A DNA stretch of 64,000 bases from an uncultured Candidatus Saccharibacteria bacterium (GTDB lineage: Bacteria; Patescibacteriota; Doudnabacteria; UBA920): positions 72,848 through 136,847 of the forward strand of contig CAYJQY010000001.1 of assembly GCA_964372905.1 (NCBI GenBank), given 5' to 3'. The notes beneath the pieces were generated by a model. The model was not told where the DNA came from and did no database searches. It worked only from the letters and a program-made list of their open reading frames with translations. This document shows, one piece after another, positions 7,439-55,163 of the stretch (the first letter of the stretch is position 1; each line of letters begins with the position of its first letter). Made by a program: the position numbers and the translations under genes.

Positions 7439-8299
7439 CTAAAAGTTATCCGTAGAAGGTCTTTGAAGGTTTGATCCCGAGCCGCCGAGACCCATGAGCA
7501 AAAGATTATTGGCATCGAGCACGTCGGTCTGGGGAATTAGATCAATTGAGGAAATGGCGCTGCCGCTTAAGCCGGGCAGGCTTACGGGAAACTTGCGCAC
7601 TTCGTTAGGGTTAACCGTAAATTCCTGGCGCGCGGTGACCAGCTGAATCCGGCGCGATTTATCGTAAACTAAAATTATTAACTCCGCCCGCTTTAATTGA
7701 TAAGGACTGTCATTGCGCACCGCGGCCTCCACCGTAAAAGGGTCGGTGTCGATTGGCCGGGAAACATCGGGGCGGATCGCGGTCAAATTGACTTGGGGAA
7801 TGCTAAACCGCTTTTGCCAGTGAATATCGTCCAAAGTCAGGGTGCCGGACACAATCGGCTGGGCCGTGGTAAAGCGCGGCGCCACCACAAATTTTTTCTG
7901 GCTGGGCAGCAAGAACAATTTACCTGGACTGCTAAGAGCCGTTTCTCCCGACGCAGTCTTGAAAATAAAATTATAAGAAATACGGTCGGCCGACAGCTCA
8001 AAATTTTCATTGGTAACCTGGGCATAAGCCGCATAGGCATTCTGACCCAGCGGCAAAACGGTGACCTTACTGACAGTAGGCGCTCGAGGATTTTGGAACG
8101 ATGGCCGGGCCTGGACTTGAAAATTTTTATAGCGGCCATTCCAATAGGCCTGCGACCCGTAGCGGACCGCGAAATAAGTCGGGATGATGCCAATGACGCA
8201 GACCACCGCCACGGTGCGCACCAGCGGCGGCAGCGTTCTTAACAAATAAACCAGGCTAATGGCGATTTCTTCGATTTTTATTTTGACGGTTTCCCACAT
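7439..8299 (-). CDS. hypothetical membrane-anchored protein (co-oriented with ftsW/rodA)
   Basis: Long ORF with an N-terminal TM helix and a Gln/Asn/Thr-rich extracytoplasmic body. Start set at the ATG at 8297-8299 (MWETVKIK) to avoid overlapping the dnaE promoter and start. The upstream GTG at 8362 is an alternative start. Confidence 0.5.
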   Translation of the reverse strand: MWETVKIKIEEIAISLVYLLRTLPPLVRTVAVVCVIGIIPTYFAVRYGSQAYWNGRYKNFQVQARPSFQNPRAPTVSKVTVLPLGQNAYAAYAQVTNENFELSADRISYNFIFKTASGETALSSPGKLFLLPSQKKFVVAPRFTTAQPIVSGTLTLDDIHWQKRFSIPQVNLTAIRPDVSRPIDTDPFTVEAAVRNDSPYQLKRAELIILVYDKSRRIQLVTARQEFTVNPNEVRKFPVSLPGLSGSAISSIDLIPQTDVLDANNLLLMGLGGSGSNLQRPSTDNF

Positions 8300-8351: not shown

Positions 8352-11300
8352 ATGAAATTCACCCACCTCCATTGCCACAGCCACTATTCGCTCCTGGACG
8401 GCCTGTCCCGCATCGGTCCCCTGGTGGAGCGGACAAAAAATTTGGGTATGGAAGCGCTGGCCCTCACTGACCACGGCGTGCTCTACGGTGCGGTGGAATT
8501 TTATAACAAAGCGCGCGACGCCGGACTCAAGCCAATTATCGGCATGGAAGTTTACATTGCCCCGCGCGGCCTGGCCAGCAAAGACGGCCGCCAGGACGCC
8601 GATTATTATCATTTAACTTTATTGGCCATGAACGATCAGGGCTATAAAAACCTGATCCAGCTCACCACCATCGCCCATCTCGAGGGCTTCTACTACAAAC
8701 CAAGAATCGATAAAGAAATTTTAAAAAAATATGGCGACGGACTGATTGCCTTGTCCGGCTGCCAGCGCGGAGAAATCCCGCGCGCGGTCGTCAACCAATC
8801 AGACCAGGAGGCTAAACTTGCGCTCCGGCAGCACCTGAACATCTTCGGCCCTAACCGGCTGTATGTGGAAATCCAACGCAACGCGCGCGCCAACACCGAA
8901 GCGCAAACCGCCCTCAACAACGCGCTTATTGCCTTTGCGCGCACCAACGGCCTGCCTCTGGTGGCTACGCAGGACAGCCATTATATTTACCCGGAAGATG
9001 CCGAAGCCCACGATGTCATGGTCTGCATTGGCACGGGCAAAACCGTGGGCGATTCCGGCCGCCTCGACATGCGCGGCGCTGACCTGTCATTGCGCTCGCC
9101 CGAGCAAATGGCCGAAGCATTTTATGATTTGCCCGAGGCCATCAGCAACACCCAGGTCATTGCCGAGCAGTGCAATTTGGAAATCCTGGTAGACCAGCGC
9201 TATTTCCCCACCGTGGAGTTGCCCAAGGGCGTGACCGCAGAAGAGCATTTGAAAACCTTAGCCCACCAGCGGGCGCGGGAACTTTATGCCAAGGACGAAG
9301 CCGTGCCGCAAGAAATCACCGAGCGCATTGACTACGAGCTCAACATCATCAACAAAAAAGGATTTGCCACATATTTTTTGATGGTAGCTGACATCGTCGG
9401 CGGGGCGCACGAACTTGGCGCCCTTACCAACACTCGCGGCAGCGCGGCCGGCAGTCTCGTAGGAAAAGTCTTAGGCATCACCACGGTTGACCCGATTTAC
9501 TACGAATTACCCTTTGAGCGCTTTTTGACCATGGACCGGCCAGGCACGCCGGATATTGACCTGGATATTGCCGACAACCGGCGGGAAGAGACCATCGGCT
9601 GGATTACCGAACGCTACGGGCGGGATAAGGTCGCCCAAATTATAACTTTTGGAACGATGAAAGCGCGCGCGGCGGTGCGCGACGTCGGCCGGGCTTTGGG
9701 AGTGCCTTACGGAAAATGCGATCGGATCGCCAAAATGATTCCCCTGGGCAAGCAGGGTTTCGACATGACGCTGGACCATGCTATTACTGTAACGCCGGAA
9801 CTGAAAGACGTTTACGAACGCGATCCGGAGACAAATAAAATTCTGACTATTGCCAAAAAATTGGAGGGTTGTGCGCGGCACGCTTCGATTCACGCAGCGG
9901 GTATTGTCATTACCCCAACCGCTCTGACCGACTATCTCCCACTTCAGCTTGAACCGGATGGCCAGCGGCGCATCACCCAATATGACATGTATGCCATTGA
10001 CGTCAACGTCAATTCCAAGGCGCTGGGACTAATTAAAATTGATCTTTTGGGGATCAGAAATTTAACTATTGTTGAGCAGGCCGTGAGAATAGTCAAGCAG
10101 CGCCATGGCATTGACATCGATATTTATAATCTCCCCCACCCCGACGAAAAAACTTTCAAGCTGCTGTCCGACGGCCTGACCTTCGGCGTGTTTCAGCTCG
10201 GTTCGTCAGGTATTACCCGCTATTTGCGGGAACTGCGGCCGACCCGGATTTTTGACATCATGGCCATGATCGCCTTGTACCGCCCCGGCCCCATGCAATT
10301 CATTCCCGAATACATCGCGCGCAAGCATAATCCCAGTCTGATTAAATATTTCGATCCGGCCTTGGAAAAAATTCTCAAGCGCACCTATGGAATTTTAGTT
10401 TACCAAGATGATCTGCTAACCATTGCCCACGACCTAGCCGGCTACAGCTGGGCCGAGGTCGATAAATTCCGCAAGGCCGTGGGTAAAAAAGACCCGGTCG
10501 AAATGGCTAAACAAAAAATCAAGTTTATCCAAGGGTGCATGGATACGTCCGGCTGGAGCCACAACAAAGCCAGCCAGATTTGGGCCTGGATCGAACCGTT
10601 TGCGGCCTATGGTTTTAACAAAGCCCATTCGGCATCCTACGCCATTGTTTCCTATCAGACCGCCTATATGAAGGCCAATTATCCCGTGGAGTTCATGGCG
10701 GCTTTGATGACTGCGGAAAGCGGCGATGAAACCAAAATCTATGCCGCGGTTGAGGAGGGCAAAAATTTAAGCATCCAGGTTTTGCCGCCGGACGTCAACG
10801 AATCTTTAGATAACTTTACCGTGGTCAACGAGGCCACCATCCGCTTCGGCTTAAATGCCATAAAAAATTTGGGCAACGATGTGATTGCGCGGATAATTGA
10901 AGTCCGCAATAATCTGGTAGGCGACCCTGGGACTCAAGCCCAATCTCGCGGCTTTGCGTCGCTGGAGGATTTTTTGATTCGCAGCCACACCAAAAATCTC
11001 AATAAAAAATCCTGGGAAGCTTTGGTTAAATCCGGGGCTTTGGATTCGTTTGGCGAGCGCGGCTCCATGCTGGCCAGCACAGAACAGGTTTTGGATTTCT
11101 TGCGCGAGCATTTTAAGCATGAGACTTCGGGGCAAAACTCTTTATTCGGGACATCAAACCAAACCGGCCGGCTCAAGCTCAAAAACGTAGCGCCGGCAGA
11201 CAAAGACGAACGCCTGGCCTGGGAAAAGGAACATCTCGGCATGTACGTATCGGCTCACCCTTTGGACCGCTACCGCGAAGTGCTAAAGTCAGTCACGTCC

Positions 11301-11840
11301 ATAAAAACTTTGGCTGACCTGGGAGAGGACAATATTGTCACGGTCGGCGGGATCATTGCTAAACTTAAACGCACCATAACCAAAAAGAATGACCCTATGG
11401 CCTTTTTAACCTTGCAGGATTCCAGCGGGATCATTGAAGTTTTAGTTTTTCCTAAAGTGATGGCTAACGTGGTGTCTTTACTCCAACTCGACGGCGTAGT
11501 CCAGGTATCTGGCCGTCTGTCCGAGCGCGAGGGCGAATTTAACCTCATTGCTAACGACCTGCGTTCCCTGCCCACCGACGAATCCTATCTGGCAGCTTTA
11601 TCAGAAATGGAAAAAAACAAGCAAGTAGTTATCCACATGCAGAAGTCCAGCGACCCCGAGGTCTTAAACCGAATTAAAGATGTAATTGTCAGTTTCCCCG
11701 GCCAGGCCCAAGTTTATTTGAATTTAGGCAATGGAACCGGGGCCAAGATGATAAAAACGCACTCCCAGGTGCGCATCAGTAATGACTTGGTGGCCGCCTT
11801 AAAGGCTATTCCAGAGGTGCTGATGGTGAGCGAAAAATAA
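8352..11840 (+). CDS. dnaE: DNA polymerase III alpha subunit
   Basis: PHP domain N-terminus (HLHCHSHYSLLDGLSRI), polymerase core and OB-fold region, 1162 aa. An extended -10 (tgatataat) lies just upstream. Confidence 0.95.
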   Translation: MKFTHLHCHSHYSLLDGLSRIGPLVERTKNLGMEALALTDHGVLYGAVEFYNKARDAGLKPIIGMEVYIAPRGLASKDGRQDADYYHLTLLAMNDQGYKNLIQLTTIAHLEGFYYKPRIDKEILKKYGDGLIALSGCQRGEIPRAVVNQSDQEAKLALRQHLNIFGPNRLYVEIQRNARANTEAQTALNNALIAFARTNGLPLVATQDSHYIYPEDAEAHDVMVCIGTGKTVGDSGRLDMRGADLSLRSPEQMAEAFYDLPEAISNTQVIAEQCNLEILVDQRYFPTVELPKGVTAEEHLKTLAHQRARELYAKDEAVPQEITERIDYELNIINKKGFATYFLMVADIVGGAHELGALTNTRGSAAGSLVGKVLGITTVDPIYYELPFERFLTMDRPGTPDIDLDIADNRREETIGWITERYGRDKVAQIITFGTMKARAAVRDVGRALGVPYGKCDRIAKMIPLGKQGFDMTLDHAITVTPELKDVYERDPETNKILTIAKKLEGCARHASIHAAGIVITPTALTDYLPLQLEPDGQRRITQYDMYAIDVNVNSKALGLIKIDLLGIRNLTIVEQAVRIVKQRHGIDIDIYNLPHPDEKTFKLLSDGLTFGVFQLGSSGITRYLRELRPTRIFDIMAMIALYRPGPMQFIPEYIARKHNPSLIKYFDPALEKILKRTYGILVYQDDLLTIAHDLAGYSWAEVDKFRKAVGKKDPVEMAKQKIKFIQGCMDTSGWSHNKASQIWAWIEPFAAYGFNKAHSASYAIVSYQTAYMKANYPVEFMAALMTAESGDETKIYAAVEEGKNLSIQVLPPDVNESLDNFTVVNEATIRFGLNAIKNLGNDVIARIIEVRNNLVGDPGTQAQSRGFASLEDFLIRSHTKNLNKKSWEALVKSGALDSFGERGSMLASTEQVLDFLREHFKHETSGQNSLFGTSNQTGRLKLKNVAPADKDERLAWEKEHLGMYVSAHPLDRYREVLKSVTSIKTLADLGEDNIVTVGGIIAKLKRTITKKNDPMAFLTLQDSSGIIEVLVFPKVMANVVSLLQLDGVVQVSGRLSEREGEFNLIANDLRSLPTDESYLAALSEMEKNKQVVIHMQKSSDPEVLNRIKDVIVSFPGQAQVYLNLGNGTGAKMIKTHSQVRISNDLVAALKAIPEVLMVSEK

Positions 11841-41278: not shown

Positions 41279-41911
41279 TTAATATTTTGAAATCTTTTCC
41301 ATGAGCATATCGTTATTCACGGCCATGTTGGCGTCGTCCAAGACTTCTCGCACCATACCTTGTTTATCAATAAGGATATAGGTGTGTCCCAGCGCCTGTC
41401 CGGGATGCATAGACGACCCCATAGATAAAAGTCCTAAACGATAGGAAGCTGTACCGGCTAAATCAGCGTGATGAGCAGAAGTGCCGCCACCCCCACCTTG
41501 ATCAAATAGGATTGTAGCTTTGGCTAAATCCGGCATTTTGGCTGTCGCTGTTTGCCAGTTTTCGGGCGCGTCAGTCACTACTGAAAGAGCAACAATATCC
41601 TCCTTGTTAAACCGTGGATCGGTTCCAAATGCCGCCATCTGGTTCCAACAAGCCGGATAGCACATTATCCCTTCATTAAAAAACAACACGACATTCTTAC
41701 CTTTAAGACTGGCGAGGTCATAGTCTTTTCCGTCTTTATCTTTCAGGGTAATATTCGGCAGCGGCTTGCCGACAAGGCTGCTGGTTGTAGTCGCGGCTTG
41801 CTGTTTTTGCTCACTGGTCTTGCTGGTATTGAATAAAGCTATGCCAACAATGACCGCGACGACAGCGGCAAGCCCCAAAATCACAAATGGTTTTACATTA
41901 TTTTTGCTCAT
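41279..41911 (-). CDS. membrane-anchored SCO1/SenC-like thioredoxin-fold protein (CxxxC)
   Basis: N-terminal TM helix, GKNVVLFF..MCYPAC (C-x3-C), downstream His/Met-rich segment. Overlaps ccdA. Confidence 0.55.
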   Translation of the reverse strand: MSKNNVKPFVILGLAAVVAVIVGIALFNTSKTSEQKQQAATTTSSLVGKPLPNITLKDKDGKDYDLASLKGKNVVLFFNEGIMCYPACWNQMAAFGTDPRFNKEDIVALSVVTDAPENWQTATAKMPDLAKATILFDQGGGGGTSAHHADLAGTASYRLGLLSMGSSMHPGQALGHTYILIDKQGMVREVLDDANMAVNNDMLMEKISKY

Positions 41912-42761
41912 GGTTTTTAAATTGTTTAATGATGTAAATTATTAACAGAATAAGGATGAGGAGGACGAGTCCGGCCCACACCAGTTCAGGAATTTTCTGG
42001 GTAAAACGGTGTACCGAATGGACGAGATTGGCCATCAGAATATTAGTTGAGAGCTGATAACTGGACTGCATGGCCAGTTTGTTGGCCAAGGCCAAATAAA
42101 TGATATACACGCCCATGCCAAGGAATACGAATCCGGCCACTGTTTCAGCTAAGTTAAACCGCCAGGTAAAACTGCCTAACTTCAAGGTGCGCGGTTTTCT
42201 CAATGACGCAAACTTTTGGGTAAAGTTAATCTTATCCAGAAAGAAAGCAATCAGGAACAAGGGCATGACCATGCCGAGCACATAGCTTAAGGTGTAGACG
42301 CCGCCCCATAAGACACTGCCGCTGGTAACCGAAAGTGCTAGTACCCCGGCTAACACCGGCGCGCAGCAAGTGGTGGCAATAGCGGAGAAGATCCCTAATA
42401 CATAGACTGAAATAAAACTATACTTTTTTACTGACGGGTTTACGAATGACGGCAATGACATTTGTTTGCCCATAACCAGCGCTATACCCAAGCCAGCCAG
42501 CATCAGTCCTCCTAAAGTAAAAATAAAATTGTGATACTTATTAAACACCTGCGCCAACGCCGAAGCTCCCAGACCAATGGGCAGAAAGATGGTCAAAATG
42601 CCCAAAAAGAACATAAAAGTCATCAACACGACCTTGTATCTCTCTTTGAATACTGATCCCAAGTAGGACGGCAACAAGACCGTAATGCAGCAGGGCGCAA
42701 AGAGCGCCGCGATACCGGCAATGAAGGCCGCAATAATAGAAGTGCTTGCAAGTAAGTCCAT
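41898..42761 (-). CDS. ccdA: cytochrome c biogenesis protein CcdA / DsbD-family thiol-disulfide transporter
   Basis: FIAGIAALFAPCCITVLLPSYL matches the CcdA first-Cys segment. About 6-8 TM helices. 287 aa. Confidence 0.7.
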   Translation of the reverse strand: MDLLASTSIIAAFIAGIAALFAPCCITVLLPSYLGSVFKERYKVVLMTFMFFLGILTIFLPIGLGASALAQVFNKYHNFIFTLGGLMLAGLGIALVMGKQMSLPSFVNPSVKKYSFISVYVLGIFSAIATTCCAPVLAGVLALSVTSGSVLWGGVYTLSYVLGMVMPLFLIAFFLDKINFTQKFASLRKPRTLKLGSFTWRFNLAETVAGFVFLGMGVYIIYLALANKLAMQSSYQLSTNILMANLVHSVHRFTQKIPELVWAGLVLLILILLIIYIIKQFKNHEQK

Positions 42762-45728: not shown

Positions 45729-46898
45729 TTAGCTATTTGCCACCACTCTGTTCCAAGTAGTTTTGACGATAGTGTCCAAATCGCTGTAGCGTGGCTCAAA
45801 CCCGAGCTCGCGCTTAATTTTGGAATTGTCGGCTACGGTGGCCGCCGCATCGCCGGGGCGGCGCGCGCCCATTTCAATGGGAATCATCCGGTTAGTTATT
45901 TCCGCAACCGCCCGAATCATTTCAGCCACGCTGCAGCCTTTGCCCGTACCAACATTATAAACATTATGGTTCTGCTCTATTCCCAGCTTCTCTAAAGCCA
46001 AAATATGAGCATCGGCAATATCTAAAACATGAATGTAATCGCGGATGCAGGTGCCGTCAAAAGTATTATAATCGTTGCCGAAAATGATGATCTTTTCGCG
46101 CGCGCCGCGGGCAACATCCATTACAATAGAAACTAAATGGGAATTAGTGTGCGTGTCGCCCAAGTCGCCCTCAAAAGAAGCGCCGCAGACATTAAAGTAG
46201 CGCAAGGTCGTGGTCTCGAAATCCAAGTACATGGCGTAATACTGTACCAGCATTTCAGCCAAAAGTTTGGAAAACCCATAGGGATTATTAGGCTGCGGCG
46301 GCGTGTTTTCCGGGATAGGGATATTGTCCTGCTCCCCATACACCGCCCCGGTAGAAGAAAAAATCAATTTTTTCACTCCGGCGGCGTTCATGGCCTGAAG
46401 CAGGACAGCGGTATTGATAAAATTATTTTGAAGATATTCGGCTGGTTTAGCCACGGATTCCTCAACCTCCAGGCTGGCGGCAAAATGCATGACAGCATCA
46501 ATTTTATTGTCAGAAAAAATTCGTTCCAGTAATTTCATATCCCCAACATCACCTTCATAAAAAACCGCCTGCTCCGGAACGAATTCACGGCGGCCCGTAG
46601 ACAAATTATCGACAATTACTACCTTATAGCCCTTATCAAGCAACTGCCGCACTGTGTGGGAGCCAATATAGCCCGCGCCGCCGGTGACTAAAATATGCTC
46701 CGGTTTCTTAGACGCCGCCCGGCTTTCCCCAGCTGGCTTCAGTTTGGATTGTCCGGCCTGCACAACCTGCTCCAGCAAATCGTTATATTTCTGAATGTTC
46801 AAAACCACGGCCTCGGACTTGCCGCCCATGCTCAAAATTATCCCCCCGCCGCGCAGATTAACTTCTTTGATTAACTCTTCCAAGTAACTGGAATCCAT
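45729..46898 (-). CDS. galE: UDP-glucose 4-epimerase with fused N-terminal Phd/YefM-like domain
   Basis: Residues ~70-389 are GalE (ILVTGGAGYIGSH, YxxxK, NVGTG). Residues 1-65 (SSYLEELIKEVNLRGGGIILSMGGKSEAVVLNIQKYNDLLEQ) resemble the Phd/YefM antitoxin fold. Read-through is continuous, with no internal start codon before ILVTGG. Confidence 0.8.
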   Translation of the reverse strand: MDSSYLEELIKEVNLRGGGIILSMGGKSEAVVLNIQKYNDLLEQVVQAGQSKLKPAGESRAASKKPEHILVTGGAGYIGSHTVRQLLDKGYKVVIVDNLSTGRREFVPEQAVFYEGDVGDMKLLERIFSDNKIDAVMHFAASLEVEESVAKPAEYLQNNFINTAVLLQAMNAAGVKKLIFSSTGAVYGEQDNIPIPENTPPQPNNPYGFSKLLAEMLVQYYAMYLDFETTTLRYFNVCGASFEGDLGDTHTNSHLVSIVMDVARGAREKIIIFGNDYNTFDGTCIRDYIHVLDIADAHILALEKLGIEQNHNVYNVGTGKGCSVAEMIRAVAEITNRMIPIEMGARRPGDAAATVADNSKIKRELGFEPRYSDLDTIVKTTWNRVVANS

Positions 46899-47170
46899 AA
46901 AAGATTATTAAACAAACGATAAATACAAATGATAAACAGCTTATAACCAATATATAAGCTGTGGTTTTGTTTGGATGTTCGATTTGTGAGCCGCAACCGG
47001 CCGGAAGAACTTTTGGTCAAATTCCCGGTCAATAGAAGCTAAGGACATCATACCATGCCCAAATGAAAAAGCAAGCCAGATATGCACAACCAAACACTAC
47101 ACTCCGCGCCATCGCGAGGACGGCGCGGAGTAGCCAAACTGGAATCACATTGCCCGGAATGTAAATTTAT

Positions 47171-50100
47171 TTACTTCCAGATAAAGTCGATAATCTGCTT
47201 ACCGCGACGGCGCATCAGGGCGAAACCGCCGGTCAGGAGTCCGGCAAAGCCTATAGCCGCCATGCCGCTGCCGGCGCCGGTCTTTGGCGCGATAAAGCGC
47301 GGCTGGCCGGGAATCGGAGGAATGGTAATAGTCACAGTATTGCCGTAGGTGTTGGTCATCACAAAGGTCTGCTGGGCGGACAGGAAGAATTTGACCCGGG
47401 CGCGGAAGCTCTTGGAAATTGAACCGCCAGCCGGAATATCGACACTGGAGAAAGTAATCGTATTCCCGCTCAAGCTTCCGCCGCCCCTGTCAACCATGTC
47501 AGCGAAAGGCAGGACGCCGGATAGATCATCGGTAATGGTAAAATTATTGGCCCGGGCATTGCCTGTGTTAGTCACGGTCAAAGTGTAGGTGATGAAATCC
47601 TCGCGGGCAGCCAGAGTAGTGGTCGCGTCAACATTCTTGGTATCATTATGCGCGCGTTTGCTGAAAATTAAGTTAGGGTTGCCCGTAGTGGTGGTGGTGG
47701 TATCGTTGTCAACAAAGACGAAAGCATCATCTTCGATCCGGCTCACGCCGTCGCCGGTGGCGCGGGCAATGTTCTGGATCGTCCTGGAAGAAGTCGAATT
47801 GACCCTGGCTTCAAACCTGATTCGACGCGACTCGCCGCTTCTAAGATCACCAAGATCCAGATCAATCCTGTTGCCGCTGGAGTTGTCATCATCCAAATCA
47901 TCAGCGTCGATGCTGTCGGTATCCACGTCTAAGCTGCTGGGCACCGAATCGGTCACCCGGACGTTATCTACCGTCTCGCTTCCGGTATTTCTCACCCTGA
48001 TTTCAAACTGGACCTCGTCATCGTTATCGGCATTAACGCTATTGCGCAGCGAAGTGCTCTGGGTTATGTTGCGGACCTGTTTTTCGATAGACAGTTCGCC
48101 GAAGCCGTCACCTATAAAGCGGTTGATAAATACGGTCGCGGAATCGCTTAACGAACCGACGCCGCTGCCGAATACTGTTGCGGTGTTGATAATGACAGTC
48201 TGGCTCTGGCCCGAAGCACCAAAAGCGCGGGCTTGGAAAGTCAAGACGCGGCTCTGGCCCGAAGTCATAGTGCCGACACTGATGAAATTGTTAATGAAGC
48301 TGTCTGAAATTGTTTGGCCATCGAGGCGTCCCGATCCGCTTACTAGCGTAAGGTGGCTCGGCAGGTTTTCCGACAACTGCACATTATTAACGGTACCGTT
48401 GTTGGCCGTCACCACAACCCGATATTCCACGCGCTCGCCGTCCTCGGCTGTGGTCTGTTTGGCAAAGCTCGTGCCGCGGGTCTGGTTGCGAACGTGTTTG
48501 GTGATGTTCAGATTGCCAGCATTCTGGTTGATGCTAACTCCGCAAATATCGCTGGTGCCGCTGCTCGTTACGGTAACGTTGCGCTGACCAGAGGTAGAAT
48601 ACGAAGTATTGAAAGTCGAACCGGAACCGGATGAAGGGTTGCCGCTCGGAGCAGACCAGGAGAAAACGCCGTTGCCGCCCGAGGCGGAGAAGAACATGGT
48701 TTGATTAACATCGCCCGACTGGAAACTAGGCGTGCATTCTACCGCATTGACGATTTGATTAACTTGAACTCCACAGGTATCGCTGGTGCCGCTGCTTGAT
48801 ACGGTCACGGTTTTTGATCCGGAAGTGGAATAGGAAGTGCTGAATTGGGAGCTTGATCCCGAAGAAGGGTTGCCGCTCGGAGCAGACCAAGAGAAAACGC
48901 CGTTGCCGCCCGAGGCAAAAAAGTTAGCCGTTTGTCCCACATTCACGCTCTGGAAGCTTGGCGAGCAGTCTACTGGGTTAACAACAATTTGATTGACCTG
49001 CACCGCGCAGGTATCGTTGGTACCATTACTCGTAACAGTTACAATCTTCTGTCCCGAGGTCGAATACTTAGTCTGGAAACTAGAGCTGGATCCGCTGGAG
49101 GGGATGCCTCCGGGAGCAGACCAGGAGAAAACGCCGTTGCCGCCCGAGGCGGAAAAGAATACCGTTTCATTGATATCCGCGCTCTGGAAGCTTGGCGAGC
49201 AGTCTACCGGATTCGGCTGAGGAATCTGATTCTGTTGATTCTTAAAGACCACTGTAGCACACTGCGGGCCGCTGAAAACTTCCACCACGCCGCCTGCCGG
49301 GGTCACCAACAATTGCTGCCAGCCGGACGGAACTGATTCAGTTACCGCGTGCGTGCCCGCGGAAACATTATTGAAGCGGGCATGACCGCCCGAATCATTC
49401 ACTGCGGTTGCGCCGCCGTCCAAGCGGAAAATGAATTGCGCCACCGGGGTAATTGGCTGGCCTTGGGTATTAAAGGTTTCTTTGATTACGTCGATACAGC
49501 CCACCACTTGGGGCGGTTGGTTGACGTTCACAGCACAGGTATCGCTCAACCCGCCGCTGCTTACGGTCACGGTTTTTTGACCCGGGCTATTGTAAGAGGC
49601 TGAAAAGTTGGAGCCTGAACCAGACGAGGGGTTGCCGCCCGGAGCTGACCAGGAAAAGACACCATTACCGCCCGAGGCCGTAAACAAAGCCGGCACGTTC
49701 ATGTCAACAGTCTGATTATGGGGGGCGCAAATAACCTGCTGAATCGGCGGACTCTTCACGCGCATCTTGAATTTCACAAAACCGCTGAATTCAAAGCAGG
49801 CCCGCAGGTCCCCCAGAGAAAATTCCCCGTTGGAGTCTATGCTAAAACCGCTCTGCACCAGGTTGCCTCGGAAGTCAAAGCGCTGGCCGCTGCCAGGAAT
49901 GATTTCTAAACTCTCGTTGGCATTGGTATGGATAAAAATTGAGTCGCGGATCGTGGCGGCATTATCGGCGCGCAGAGCAATTTTAACCCGGTGCTCTGCG
50001 GCAGCGGCCGTATCAATATTCGTTCCAACTGCAACATTAAACGCTGTAGTAACATTGGGATCGCCATTTACAATAGCCCCGTTATGGAAATACACCAACA

Positions 50101-50416
50101 CGTCAACAACATCGCCGGCATGGGCCGTAACACCTGCCGCTTGCTCGGCATCGTTCCTGGGGTATTGGCCGTTTTCAAGCTTAGCCCGGACCAAAGGAAA
50201 ATCCACACAGGCCAAACCTGGATCGCCGTAAACAATGGGAAACGGATTGAATACCGGGGTTTGAAATTCCTGACAGTCTTCGGCCAAGGCGTTATCTGAA
50301 CGCTGCGGCGCAAAAGCAAAAATGGCGCCGACAGCCAATAAAATCAGCCCCACTTTCCAATTAAAGCGAGGAAAAATCGAACGGAATTTTGACCAAAATG
50401 CTCGCTGGGTGGACAT
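47171..50416 (-). CDS. giant repeat-containing cell-surface protein with C-terminal sortase-type sorting signal
   Basis: N-terminal signal/TM. About five ~75-aa repeats (..CSPSFQS..FFSASGGNGVFSWSAPGGNPSSGS..TVTVTSSGT.DTC.VQVNQ). About three DUF11-like 'conserved repeat' domains. C-terminus IAPKTG followed by a hydrophobic segment and RRRGK. Confidence 0.8.
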   Translation of the reverse strand: MSTQRAFWSKFRSIFPRFNWKVGLILLAVGAIFAFAPQRSDNALAEDCQEFQTPVFNPFPIVYGDPGLACVDFPLVRAKLENGQYPRNDAEQAAGVTAHAGDVVDVLVYFHNGAIVNGDPNVTTAFNVAVGTNIDTAAAAEHRVKIALRADNAATIRDSIFIHTNANESLEIIPGSGQRFDFRGNLVQSGFSIDSNGEFSLGDLRACFEFSGFVKFKMRVKSPPIQQVICAPHNQTVDMNVPALFTASGGNGVFSWSAPGGNPSSGSGSNFSASYNSPGQKTVTVSSGGLSDTCAVNVNQPPQVVGCIDVIKETFNTQGQPITPVAQFIFRLDGGATAVNDSGGHARFNNVSAGTHAVTESVPSGWQQLLVTPAGGVVEVFSGPQCATVVFKNQQNQIPQPNPVDCSPSFQSADINETVFFSASGGNGVFSWSAPGGIPSSGSSSSFQTKYSTSGQKIVTVTSNGTNDTCAVQVNQIVVNPVDCSPSFQSVNVGQTANFFASGGNGVFSWSAPSGNPSSGSSSQFSTSYSTSGSKTVTVSSSGTSDTCGVQVNQIVNAVECTPSFQSGDVNQTMFFSASGGNGVFSWSAPSGNPSSGSGSTFNTSYSTSGQRNVTVTSSGTSDICGVSINQNAGNLNITKHVRNQTRGTSFAKQTTAEDGERVEYRVVVTANNGTVNNVQLSENLPSHLTLVSGSGRLDGQTISDSFINNFISVGTMTSGQSRVLTFQARAFGASGQSQTVIINTATVFGSGVGSLSDSATVFINRFIGDGFGELSIEKQVRNITQSTSLRNSVNADNDDEVQFEIRVRNTGSETVDNVRVTDSVPSSLDVDTDSIDADDLDDDNSSGNRIDLDLGDLRSGESRRIRFEARVNSTSSRTIQNIARATGDGVSRIEDDAFVFVDNDTTTTTTGNPNLIFSKRAHNDTKNVDATTTLAAREDFITYTLTVTNTGNARANNFTITDDLSGVLPFADMVDRGGGSLSGNTITFSSVDIPAGGSISKSFRARVKFFLSAQQTFVMTNTYGNTVTITIPPIPGQPRFIAPKTGAGSGMAAIGFAGLLTGGFALMRRRGKQIIDFIWK

Positions 50417-50800
50417 AATATTTATAAAAGCTTAAAAAATACTTATAATTAAATGACTTGCTGGCCTGTAAAACTTGGCTCAAATATGCTGAAATATGAG
50501 GATTTAAGGAAATAACTTATAATTATAATCTTTTTCGATGATTTTGTCAAGGCGCTTGCGGAAAATGCCCGCGATGTATCTCATCTTTTACAGCGCTGGC
50601 CCAGAACAAACCAGAACAAATATAGCTTCCAATTGTAGCTCTTTCTTAACAAATTGTAAAATAGCCGGATACATAACTGGGTGCATCAAACCCGCCCTGC
50701 GCTTATAAACCATGATCACGCCGATGAGCCACTCCCGCGCGGCCGGATGTTTGATGCCAAGGGTTCAGTACTCACAAATAATAAGACTGTATATTACATT

Positions 50801-53165: not shown

Positions 53166-55163
53166 ATGGAAAACTTGGAAACCCAGGTAGCCAAAATCGA
53201 GATCGGCAACAACAAACAGACCAGCACCTACGTTTTCGTCCTGGCTGAAACCGATCCAGACACCCTGTCAGAACTGTTTATTATCGTCGAATTGCCCTTG
53301 TTTAACCCGGCTGCCGCTCCGGATTGCGAAAGATTGGCCCAAATTATTGCCGCGGCCCTGCGGCGATCCTATCGCAAGCACATCAGCGAGAATACGTTCG
53401 AAAACTCCCTGACCCAGATCAACGAAGAGCTGGCCAATTTAGCCGAGCTTGGCAAGACCCACTGGGTCGGCAAGCTCAACGCCTTAGTCAGCGCCAAGAC
53501 CGACGACAATCTCCATATCAGCACCACGGGAAAAATTCACGCGCTCCTGCTGCGCGGCGGCGAATTCATTTCGGTCGCCGACAGTCCGCTCGTCCATCAT
53601 CCCCTAAAAACTTTTGAAAACTTTGCCCTGGGCAAACTTAAGCTCGGCGACACGCTAATTTTTTCCACCAGCCAGCTGTTTAACCACCTGTCCGTTGACC
53701 GGCTCAAAAATATCCTCCGGGATTCTTCCCTGCCCGCCGCCGCCCAGCAAGTTATTGAGATTCTTCAGGACAATGCCGGGCCGGAAATTGCTTTTGGCGC
53801 CCTTATGAGCACCCAGGTCGAACCTGGCTCGATTCCCGAATTCGAAGAAGAAATCGATTTGGAGGAATACATGGCAGCTTCTGGCGGCTGGCAACAATGG
53901 CCCAAACGCGCCTGGTCAAGCATAGCCAACCTGCTTCGTCGGGGCGCAGGCGCCGCTATGGATCTCATAAAAAACCGCAAGCGCGCGGAGGTCATACAGC
54001 TCATCAATAAAAATCGGCAGAACCTGGCCGCGGCCGCGGAAAACGCGCGGCGCAATTTAAGTCCGCAAAAATTTGCCCAGTTTTCCCGCACCAAAAAATT
54101 CTTCCTTATCTCGGCGCTTGTCCTGCTGGTAGCGCTCATCGCCAACATCGCCATCGGCGCGCACTATAAAAGCGTTCGGGCCAAAGCCGAACAAATCAAA
54201 AACACCTTCGCCGCTATCGGCAACAACCTGAATAATGTCAATGCCTCTTATCTTTATGGCGATGAGGCCAATGCCACCGCCGCGCTCAAAAATATCCAAG
54301 ACCAGATCAACACTCTCAATGACCTCAATCCGACCCAGCAGCAGGAGCTGGATAATATCAATAAACAAGTCGCCGAACTGCGCGACAAAATCGAACGTAA
54401 GGAAAGCCTTGAGCCCACGGCCGTAGCCACTTTGAGCAGCGCCGACTCCCTCATCAAACTGCCCAATTATTTTGCCACCCAAACCGGCGAAGCCATTATC
54501 AGCTATAATCGCGGCAACGGCAACATTCAGGATAACATCTTAAAATCCAGCGAAACTATTGTCCGCAGCGTCCCGGTCAAACCCGGCCTGGCCGTAATTT
54601 ACAACGGCACCAGCTTGATGGCTTGGAACTCGGACACCGGCTCGCTCGGCTCGCCCTTTGTTCAAAACGTGCCCACGGCCGAACGCGCTACCGGTCTGGC
54701 TTACTACCCCATTAACCGGCGCGTCTATATTGTCGATAAATCCGCGGGCGACGTCTTAAGCTTCATTGTCGGCGATACTAATTTGAGCAAGCCTGTGGTT
54801 TCCATCGACACTATTGATGATGCGCGGCGCGCCGTTGACCTGGCCGTGGACGGCGCGATTTATTTGCTCACCGACAGCGGGCGCATAGGCAAATACGTGT
54901 CCGGCAGTCCGGTGGAGTTTAATCAGCCGGGTTTGTTTGTGCCCATATCCGGCCGCGGCCGCATCTATTCCCAAAGCGATTTCAAATACTTGTATGTTTT
55001 AGACCCTGAAAATCGCCGCATGCTGATATTAGATAAAAAAGGCGGCGTGGTAAAACAGTTAGTGAGCGGCCAGTTTAATAATCTGAAGGATTTCGCCATC
55101 GACGAGAAAAACCGCATTATTTTCGTGCTCAACGACAACAGCTTGCTGAAAATCAATTTCTAG
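53166..55163 (+). CDS. hypothetical bitopic protein: cytoplasmic N-domain, single TM helix, C-terminal beta-propeller-like repeat domain
   Basis: 665 aa. TM helix FFLISALVLLVALIANIAIG near residue 320. C-terminal repeats with hydrophobic-x-D/N patterns (YIVDKSAGDVL, YLLTDSGRIGKY, YVLDPENRRMLILD, IFVLNDNSLLKINF). Confidence 0.55.
   Translation: MENLETQVAKIEIGNNKQTSTYVFVLAETDPDTLSELFIIVELPLFNPAAAPDCERLAQIIAAALRRSYRKHISENTFENSLTQINEELANLAELGKTHWVGKLNALVSAKTDDNLHISTTGKIHALLLRGGEFISVADSPLVHHPLKTFENFALGKLKLGDTLIFSTSQLFNHLSVDRLKNILRDSSLPAAAQQVIEILQDNAGPEIAFGALMSTQVEPGSIPEFEEEIDLEEYMAASGGWQQWPKRAWSSIANLLRRGAGAAMDLIKNRKRAEVIQLINKNRQNLAAAAENARRNLSPQKFAQFSRTKKFFLISALVLLVALIANIAIGAHYKSVRAKAEQIKNTFAAIGNNLNNVNASYLYGDEANATAALKNIQDQINTLNDLNPTQQQELDNINKQVAELRDKIERKESLEPTAVATLSSADSLIKLPNYFATQTGEAIISYNRGNGNIQDNILKSSETIVRSVPVKPGLAVIYNGTSLMAWNSDTGSLGSPFVQNVPTAERATGLAYYPINRRVYIVDKSAGDVLSFIVGDTNLSKPVVSIDTIDDARRAVDLAVDGAIYLLTDSGRIGKYVSGSPVEFNQPGLFVPISGRGRIYSQSDFKYLYVLDPENRRMLILDKKGGVVKQLVSGQFNNLKDFAIDEKNRIIFVLNDNSLLKINF

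Follow-up and report, generated by a model that had tools for sequence, protein, structure and literature searches.

The 64,000-nucleotide stretch of DNA analysed here (contig CAYJQY010000001.1, positions 72,848 to 136,847; the whole stretch is called the window below) carries on its minus strand a gene for a 1081-amino-acid surface protein. Its C-terminus resembles the sortase signals of Gram-positive cell-wall proteins, with APKTG in place of LPXTG. The open reading frame (ORF) at 47171-50416 is genuine and begins with ATG, and protein P0001 in the NCBI record is a 100% match to its product. Hydropathy reveals exactly two hydrophobic segments, at amino acids (aa) 18-40 and 1050-1068. The parts of the gene, read from the N-terminus of the protein, are as follows.

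47171..50416, minus strand: coding sequence of the 1081-aa surface protein, stop codon counted in.
50282..50416, minus strand: signal peptide, aa 1-45, recognized by hydropathy (basic n-region, core aa 22-36, then P-Q-R ... A-L-A|E-D).
49733..50281, minus strand: head domain, aa 46-228, a family-specific Ig-like beta-sandwich in which Cys48, Cys70 and Cys207 are conserved and which has an H111-N112 motif.
49517..49732, minus strand: PKD-like repeat 1, aa 229-300, with Cys230/Cys294 (Pfam PKD; DNA repeat family D1).
49208..49516, minus strand: CnaB-type domain, aa 301-403, with K312/E360/N393 and Cys307/Cys386 (alignment A5, AlphaFold2 model, Foldseek).
48521..49207, minus strand: PKD-like repeats 2-4, aa 404-476, 482-554 and 559-631, with one Cys pair each, 64 residues apart.
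48107..48520, minus strand: DUF11/CLIPPER domain a, aa 633-770, with K640, E661/E664 and N744 (Pfam, NCBIfam).
47681..48106, minus strand: DUF11/CLIPPER domain b, aa 771-912, with K779, D800/E801 and N892 (Pfam, NCBIfam).
47294..47680, minus strand: DUF11/CLIPPER domain c, aa 913-1041, with K920, E939/D940 and N1021 (Pfam, NCBIfam).
47174..47293, minus strand: predicted cell-wall sorting signal, aa 1042-1081, comprising I-APKTG, hydrophobic AGSGMAAIGFAGLLTGGFALM, RRRGKQ and an extra IIDFIWK.
47276..47290, minus strand: pentapeptide A-P-K-T-G, aa 1043-1047, with the predicted scissile bond T1046|G1047, placed by analogy with LPXTG substrates.

The C-terminus runs from RFIAPKTG through 21 hydrophobic or small residues to RRRGKQ and a final IIDFIWK, and it is the only tripartite C-terminus in the six frames of the window. 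Scanned in isolation (last 41-55 residues), the tail scores 19.7-20.8 bits with the LPXTG_anchor model TIGR01167, above the cut-off of 15.9, and the runner-up models, NPXTG and LAVTG, are also of the sortase-signal type. All 28 homolog tails examined have P, T and G and 25 have K, and the first position of the pentapeptide is Ala in 22, Pro in six and Leu in none. Conservation extends to both sides of the pentapeptide: Phe or Tyr occupies position -2 in 27/28 tails and Val, Thr or Ile position -1 in 26/28, and downstream both the transmembrane (TM) core FAGLLTxGF and an extension xLxxLIF[TS] past the basic cluster (here IIDFIWK) are conserved. The spacing between the motif and the C-terminus is constant, at 30-34 residues.

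A 40-position profile of the tail, run against 1.84 billion representative proteins, matched 130 clusters at E≤0.001, of which 46 reached E≤1e-10, and virtually all matches fall at the extreme C-terminus. About eight weak matches arise from spurious translation of a repeat element that reads ISIHAPRTGSD; the other ~120 clusters are genuine. LPxTG does not occur among the pentapeptides of the matched clusters, which are APKTG, APTTG, APRTG, PPKTG and close variants. A chance match can be dismissed, since ~120 genuine clusters carry this extended motif at their very C-terminus.

The genuine matches split into two unrelated families. The first comprises large CLIPPER proteins. The second comprises Ser/Thr-rich proteins of 150-500 aa that end in Y[FY]VAP[TK]TGVNKxAPFxFAGLLTxGF..RKRKLIFN (P0269-P0275, P0279, P0284, P0287, P0291, P0304 and P0313); no NCBIfam model matched this family, and its member HEX3099437.1 is annotated as Patescibacteria. 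Since unrelated proteins carry the same tail, it behaves like a transferable signal and not like the end of one domain family.

The partner enzyme expected of such a signal is encoded beside orthologs of the 1081-aa protein. In eight of nine distinct related Patescibacteria loci (L001, L004, L008, L009, L012, L013, L014 and L015), a sortase gene (PF04203) is found one or two positions upstream of the gene for an [AP]PxTG CLIPPER protein; L011 is the only one of the nine with a different neighbour. At L001 (GCA_036726225.1) and L004 (GCA_023484515.1) the sortase, of 434 or 486 aa, is encoded directly or two genes upstream of an APKTG protein. These two sortases served as probes for L008, L009 and L012-L015, and a contig scan with the low-complexity peptide patterns G[LV]FLYFFF and YQ[NS]WI[AN]GF confirmed at least five loci. 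The adhesin tails at the probe-found loci read FVAPKTG, FTAPKTG, FTAPTTG and FIAPRTG. The original prediction of an LPXTG-type tripartite signal with A-P-K-T-G at its centre is thus borne out chiefly by comparative evidence, the family-wide motif and the sortase at 8/9 loci, beside the TIGR01167 score that the tail reaches when scanned alone.

Gene order around the pair is also conserved, with a CAP gene and the sortase gene diverging (CAP <- sortase), followed by a small gene in some cases, the CLIPPER adhesin, an epimerase of ~390 aa, a family 2 glycosyltransferase (GT2) and an S8 peptidase. Genes for cell-envelope polysaccharides, including epimerases, RmlD, an NTP-transferase, GT2 and a MurJ/Wzx-like protein, are conserved around the orthologs. 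The epimerase encoded next to the window gene shares 48-56% full-length identity with the epimerases that trail the adhesins of L001, L002, L004, L012, L013 and L014. Because this adjoining downstream gene is orthologous, we consider the window gene to be a positional ortholog of the sortase-linked adhesins.

The sortases at these loci belong to a family of long enzymes with 404 matches at E≤1e-10, mostly of 400-550 aa and from organisms named Doudnabacteria or Patescibacteria. Sortases are common in genomes of the Candidate Phyla Radiation (CPR) (PMC6744442). The long enzyme passes the generic sortase model TIGR01076 (46.4 bits against 39.35) and falls below all NCBIfam class cut-offs, scoring 51 against 160 bits for class C, 49 against 165 for class D, 37 against 160 for class E and 23 against 166 for class F; the class A and B models are unlisted at E≤0.01. 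Its best relative in the PDB is a class C sortase (E 1.3e-7), and the DP[FWY] lid motif of class C is present in one of 90 long sortases. Judged by these profile scores, the enzyme appears to fit none of classes A-F.

In the best 120 of the 404 sequences, the ALSTCWP and I[SA]GHSS motifs are essentially invariant and the Arg is present in 108. An extra extracellular module with a calcium-site-like motif, DNSGNGL, occurs in 115 of these 120. The module separates the TM segment from the catalytic domain, at about residues 125-235 of P0094, and follows the pattern YQNWIxGFYYD...DNSGNGL.NF.K.LLNLNPKSYDTLGLG (P0094-P0213). The existence of this sortase family and its gene linkage to the orthologs are direct observations, as are the conservation of the signal and the architecture of the substrate.

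The signal at the N-terminus of the 1081-aa protein would be cut after Ala45, and the pattern AP[RQ].x(5-7).A|[ED].C recurs there in orthologs. Homolog alignments define a conserved region of 190 aa (aa 37-228) that corresponds to the head. This domain resembles the Ig domains of sortase-anchored adhesins and is likely a ligand- or host-binding tip.

The stalk combines three kinds of module. There are four PKD repeats in total, counted both as four Pfam stretches and as four DNA copies. In the CnaB-type domain, K312, E360, N393 and the Cys pair are invariant in an alignment with nine homologs (10 sequences). The AlphaFold2 model of this domain has a predicted local distance difference test (pLDDT) score of 93.5, and Foldseek matched it to GBS52, UafA, TIE and CnaB2 with probability 1.00 and TMq of at most 0.69; the Pfam SpaA model (PF17802) is sub-threshold (14.3 bits against 23.1). 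Modelling thus confirms a predicted CnaB fold for aa 301-403, and K312/E360/N393 form a candidate isopeptide triad. Cysteines are strictly paired in each PKD and CnaB module.

The remaining three stalk domains match DUF11 (PF01345, 85.1 bits against a cut-off of 24.6, E 5.6e-24, three stretches) and TIGR01451 (72.6 bits against 24, E 1.9e-20), and they have no match at E≤1 among PDB sequences. DUF11, or CLIPPER, is a CnaA-like stalk domain of fibrillar adhesins, and the solved example contains a Lys-Asn isopeptide bond whose formation is catalysed by Asp (PMC12617251). All three copies here keep a first-strand Lys, an acidic residue in the D/E-x-V-x-[YF] strand and a late Asn, which are candidates for Lys-Asn isopeptide bonds. 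Domain c is the best-conserved module, at 60-70% identity to homologs, and its last strand, NTYGNTVT, is found family-wide. The number of stalk modules differs widely among orthologs, whose length ranges from 636 to more than 1800 aa.

Much of the architecture had been anticipated by the original prediction. The N-terminal signal or TM segment on an ATG-initiated 1081-aa ORF (hydrophobic at aa 18-40) and the three DUF11-type domains, now assigned by the Pfam and NCBIfam models, both hold. The proposed repeats are indeed of PKD type, although their number is four instead of about five, plus one CnaB-type domain. The list of domains was incomplete in that it omitted the conserved 190-aa head, which is the most likely ligand-binding part. 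The protein had also been called by far the largest product in the window, but the DNA polymerase III alpha subunit DnaE (ORF 8352-11840), at 1162 aa, is larger.

We favour the reading, with a probability of roughly 0.72, that the gene product is a fibrillar surface protein, exported by Sec and dependent on a sortase, that carries a lineage-specific APxTG signal and belongs to a Doudnabacteria-like organism within the Patescibacteria (CPR). In this scheme, the signal peptide would be removed on export and the precursor would be held in the membrane by the C-terminal hydrophobic segment and the basic cluster. A membrane-bound, CPR-specific sortase would then read the extended motif [FY]-[VIT]-A-P-K-T-G. 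This enzyme is proposed to have ~400-550 aa, with a cytoplasmic N-terminus, one TM segment, the DNSGNGL module and a C-terminal catalytic domain whose putative catalytic residues are the His of I[SA]GHSS, the Cys of ALSTCWP and an Arg. By analogy with LPXTG substrates, both the cleavage site, between Thr1046 and Gly1047, and the acceptor, a peptidoglycan precursor to which the protein would be joined, can be predicted. From the wall outwards, the stalk would then comprise three CLIPPER domains, three PKD repeats, one CnaB domain and one further PKD repeat, stiffened by the candidate Lys-Asn isopeptide bonds and by one disulfide per PKD or CnaB module. At its end it would display the family-specific Ig-like head as the likely ligand- or host-binding tip.

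Several observations weigh against this reading. TIGR01167 is unreported when the full-length protein is scanned, and the Pfam model Gram_pos_anchor (PF00746) misses the tail. The extension after the basic cluster (IIDFIWK or LIFT) has no counterpart in classical sorting signals. The isopeptide triads were read from alignments among the protein's own domains and CPR homologs, not against the solved structure 9IFR. The head has no close sequence or structural relative of known ligand and no recognizable lectin or other binding fold, and it is the architecture by itself that suggests adhesion. There is no sortase in the 64-kb window, as had been predicted, or in the ~5.8 kb past its right edge: a TLxTC-type motif is absent from every real ORF of the window, and the best tblastn match of the two CPR sortases from L001 and L004 to the window has an E value of only 0.5. 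The segment of the conserved block that extends from NUDIX to CAP-sortase is also missing from the window.

The alternative that survives best concerns the function of the protein and not its anchoring. A sortase-anchored core envelope protein, near-universal in the clade, might serve as a wall-spanning spacer or an S-layer-like scaffold with no specific ligand. A single conserved copy per locus among cell-envelope polysaccharide genes would suit such a role, as would a head lacking a binding fold that can be recognized. However, a conserved tip and anchor with a stalk of varying length and composition between them is the design that marks fibrillar adhesins (PMC12617251), and the wide range of ortholog lengths suits the tuning of reach better than a fixed lattice. 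We therefore regard a purely structural role as unlikely.

A second alternative is that the hydrophobic C-terminus is a plain membrane anchor, and that the sortase has been lost here and in the lineage of L002, or never acted on the protein. The missing enzyme and the missing sortase-bearing part of the synteny block both favour this possibility, as does the patchy detection of sortases in CPR groups other than Microgenomates (Meheust et al. 2019, PMC6744442). The GT2-S8 part of the conserved block is missing from the window as well. Its RNaseH-like, LGT, hypothetical and PDZ-protease genes are displaced to 30517-27179 on the minus strand, and LexA now stands upstream of the adhesin; from the displaced piece we conclude that a rearrangement has taken place at the locus. 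L002 (groundwater metagenome ERZ978523), which holds the closest homolog, has the same arrangement as the window, with an adhesin that is 41% and a LexA that is 81% identical, and there is no sortase within 10 kb of the L002 gene.

Nevertheless, the sequence F-I-A-P-K-T-G matches the family consensus exactly in both of these unlinked lineages despite only 41% overall identity, and if no enzyme processed the protein, it would be hard to see why P, T and G should stay invariant. The long sortase is encoded by relatives whose DnaE is ~69% identical, and sortase function does not require gene linkage. Because the motif is intact in both unlinked lineages and these relatives carry the enzyme, a sortase has probably been retained elsewhere in this genome. 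A plain membrane anchor thus seems improbable.

The L002 locus also carries a diversity-generating retroelement between LexA and the adhesin (L002:6169-9482), consisting of an Avd-like gene, a target, a template repeat and a reverse transcriptase. The variable region lies at ~7572-7671 and the template repeat at ~7939-8038, and 14 of the 16 mismatches between them fall at template adenines. We rejected this element as a diversifier of the adhesin, as its target is a separate 249-aa protein and the window has no counterpart.

A third possibility, that the protein is a pilin subunit polymerized into a covalent pilus by a class-C-like sortase, draws on the fact that the partner sortase matches class C best, albeit weakly, in NCBIfam and the PDB, and on the resemblance of the head and CnaB domains to pilin domains. 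Yet the sortase reaches only 51 of the 160 bits required for class C and nearly always lacks the DP[FWY] lid (1/90). The head alignment of 21 sequences contains no invariant or nearly invariant Lys, and the 1081-aa protein has QYPRN with Arg at the place of the pilin motif. Moreover, there is a single substrate gene beside the sortase, and 1081 aa is far above the size of typical pilins. We consider this possibility very improbable. Least credible of all is a signal read by an exosortase-, archaeosortase- or rhombosortase-type enzyme. Those systems have the tripartite design in common with this tail, and the best matches among models of the PEP-CTERM, PGF-CTERM, GlyGly-CTERM or MYXO-CTERM type are weak ones to MYXO-CTERM (10.4-11.4 bits against 20) and VPLPA-CTERM (6-7 against 25), but both scores are well under their cut-offs and no such enzyme is present at any of the nine loci, where a sortase is seen instead.

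DnaE places the organism beside Candidatus Doudnabacteria within the Patescibacteria. Its matches at 66-69% identity bear the names Candidatus Doudnabacteria or Patescibacteria group bacterium, and the named homologs of the 1081-aa protein are Patescibacteria. The assumption of a small, episymbiont-type genome in the original prediction is therefore reasonable. The window encodes a D-Ala-D-Ala ligase (Ddl), an alanine racemase (Alr) and an FtsW/RodA-like ORF, and because these genes are present, peptidoglycan is likely to be made.

A gene of DsbD type is located at 41898-42761 on the minus strand, and DsbB and DsbA-like genes lie just past the right edge of the window. These Dsb genes accord with a surface protein whose cysteines are paired. 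The thiol-disulfide cluster as a whole comprises a DsbD-type membrane protein, a redoxin, DsbB and a DsbA-like thioredoxin (41898-42761 in the window; L016:5858-6490; and L005:3183-4239, which lies ~3-4 kb past the right edge). It fits the enrichment of DsbA/VKOR that has been reported for CPR.

The nucleotide repeats within the gene had raised the prospects of phase variation and of assembly error. The four PKD-coding copies are 59-73% identical, with a longest exact match of 41 nucleotides, and Tandem Repeats Finder reports nothing in the gene. Because the repeats have diverged to this extent and the repeat search is empty, slipped-strand phase variation and a simple collapse of repeats are both unlikely, and we reject the former. 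An independent assembly, Logan contig L016 (ERR3478686), is 99.82% identical over 8.4 kb, begins at 47768 inside the second CLIPPER domain and gives the last 198 aa exactly, with the whole of CLIPPER domain c and the sorting signal included. Independent confirmation covers these last 198 codons; the PKD region lies outside it. A second Logan contig, L017 (ERR4904391), terminates in the spacer, at 47023. Both of these independent short-read assemblies thus break at or inside the gene and outside the PKD repeats, possibly through strain variation or graph tangles at 47023 and 47768. They represent the organism of the window, which also occurs in run ERR4904390.

Three further features are placed directly around the gene.

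50522..50550, minus strand: promoter-like TTGACA-17-TATAAT, 12/12 matches, ~105 nucleotides 5′ of the ATG (sigma-70-type consensus scan; a pattern match alone).
47100..47132, minus strand: terminator-like GC-rich hairpin of 14 base pairs with a weak T tract, 39 nucleotides past the stop codon (a pattern match alone).
45729..46898, minus strand: NAD-dependent epimerase, 389 aa, directly downstream of the adhesin (Pfam).

The first ~65 codons of the epimerase form an N-terminal extension with weak similarity to the Phd/YefM antitoxin that is under the cut-off (E 7.9e-4). This extension is kept over its full length in all orthologs that trail the adhesin in related loci. On the other side of the adhesin, the plus-strand ORF at 53166-55163 encodes 665 aa with weak coiled-coil-type matches and no Pfam family; its counterpart near LexA in L002 is 47% identical.

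Other recurrent tails are present on CPR proteins with PKD or DUF11 domains. These include 'VPTG[PTG]xES + TM + Y.AYTRT..FRRRE', 'VTGPTETAAAAAG..YRERSKK' and 'LPQSGSPT..', and endings that read '..F[KR]E[IV].P[RKW]' and lack a TM segment also occur among the PKD/DUF11 homologs. The carriers of these other tail types include P0028, P0049, P0057, P0059, P0061, P0067 and P0069, together with P0004, P0007, P0020 and others. P0049 has the same head domain as the 1081-aa protein, yet it ends in a tail of the VPTGGE type. Such recurrent tails may be further sorting signals that have gone unrecognized.

Work on how CPR or Patescibacteria build their surfaces and attach to hosts has so far dealt mostly with type IV pili and, recently, with Pam pili. 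A relation of the 1081-aa protein to the newly described CPR Pam pili was considered and rejected. The locus suggests a third kind of surface element, namely a fibrillar protein that is joined covalently to the wall and served by a sorting code (APxTG) and a sortase lineage of its own, in a system that many Doudnabacteria-like genomes share. This link escapes current annotation models. The NCBIfam release of June 2026 has no model for the APxTG tail variant, for the long-sortase subclass or for the second substrate family, and on full-length proteins it leaves the anchor uncalled.

A bolder proposal, to which we would give even odds, is that the APxTG tails and the sortases of 400-550 aa with a calcium-site-like module define an undescribed, Patescibacteria-specific sortase class with the natural specificity [FY]-[VIT]-A-P-[KT]-T-G, in which Ala takes the place of Leu at position 1. 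The CLIPPER adhesin would be the dedicated, clade-wide substrate of this class and would serve Doudnabacteria-like episymbionts as their main attachment organelle bound covalently to the wall. If this specificity is true, the tail would provide a surface-proteome marker for Doudnabacteria-like organisms and would point to a candidate host-binding head. The enzyme would also offer a natural Ala-specific, orthogonal transpeptidase for protein ligation alongside LPXTG-specific enzymes.

The closest of the well-known systems are the LPXTG wall-anchored proteins of Gram-positive bacteria (TIGR01167/PF00746), which share with the APxTG proteins a signal peptide, a tripartite tail with P, T and G, and linkage to a PF04203 sortase, seen here in the orthologs. 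In contrast to those proteins, the APxTG proteins have Ala or Pro and never Leu at position 1 in ~120 genuine clusters, and they belong to CPR hosts. They also differ by the aromatic residue at -2, the beta-branched residue at -1 and the extension of 7-9 residues, xLxxLIF[TS], past the basic cluster.

Variant sorting motifs are a familiar theme, and dedicated pairs of one sortase and a single substrate include SrtB-IsdC (NPQTN) and the 'proteobacterial dedicated sortase system'. The loci described here are similar in that one sortase adjoins one substrate with a non-canonical motif in conserved synteny. However, the APxTG-linked sortase appears to fall outside classes A-F and has a long N-terminal region with an extra extracellular module. 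Furthermore, the APxTG system is not strictly limited to one substrate, as shown by the second, unlinked family with APTTG tails.

The CLIPPER fibrillar adhesins (Costa et al. 2025, PMC12617251; PDB 9IFR) are comparable in having a tip, a stalk of tandem Ig-like domains and an anchor. In all three CLIPPER copies here, the Lys, acidic and Asn positions that may form such a bond are conserved, and disulfides would accompany the candidate isopeptide bonds. By comparison, the protein described here has a mixed PKD/CnaB/CLIPPER stalk and a novel, family-specific tip, and the characterized Acinetobacter CLIPPER adhesin has an OmpA-like domain where the APKTG signal would serve as anchor here.

Our literature search found the APKTG pentapeptide solely as a substrate of an engineered mutant of Staphylococcus aureus SrtA. 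This F40 mutant accepts APKTG and APATG (PMC9126251), so the pentapeptide is the same, but the mutant is laboratory-evolved and of low activity. Among the Patescibacteria, by contrast, APKTG appears from the tail sequences to be what a whole sortase lineage naturally prefers, and the window gene is one ordinary member of the APxTG adhesin family.

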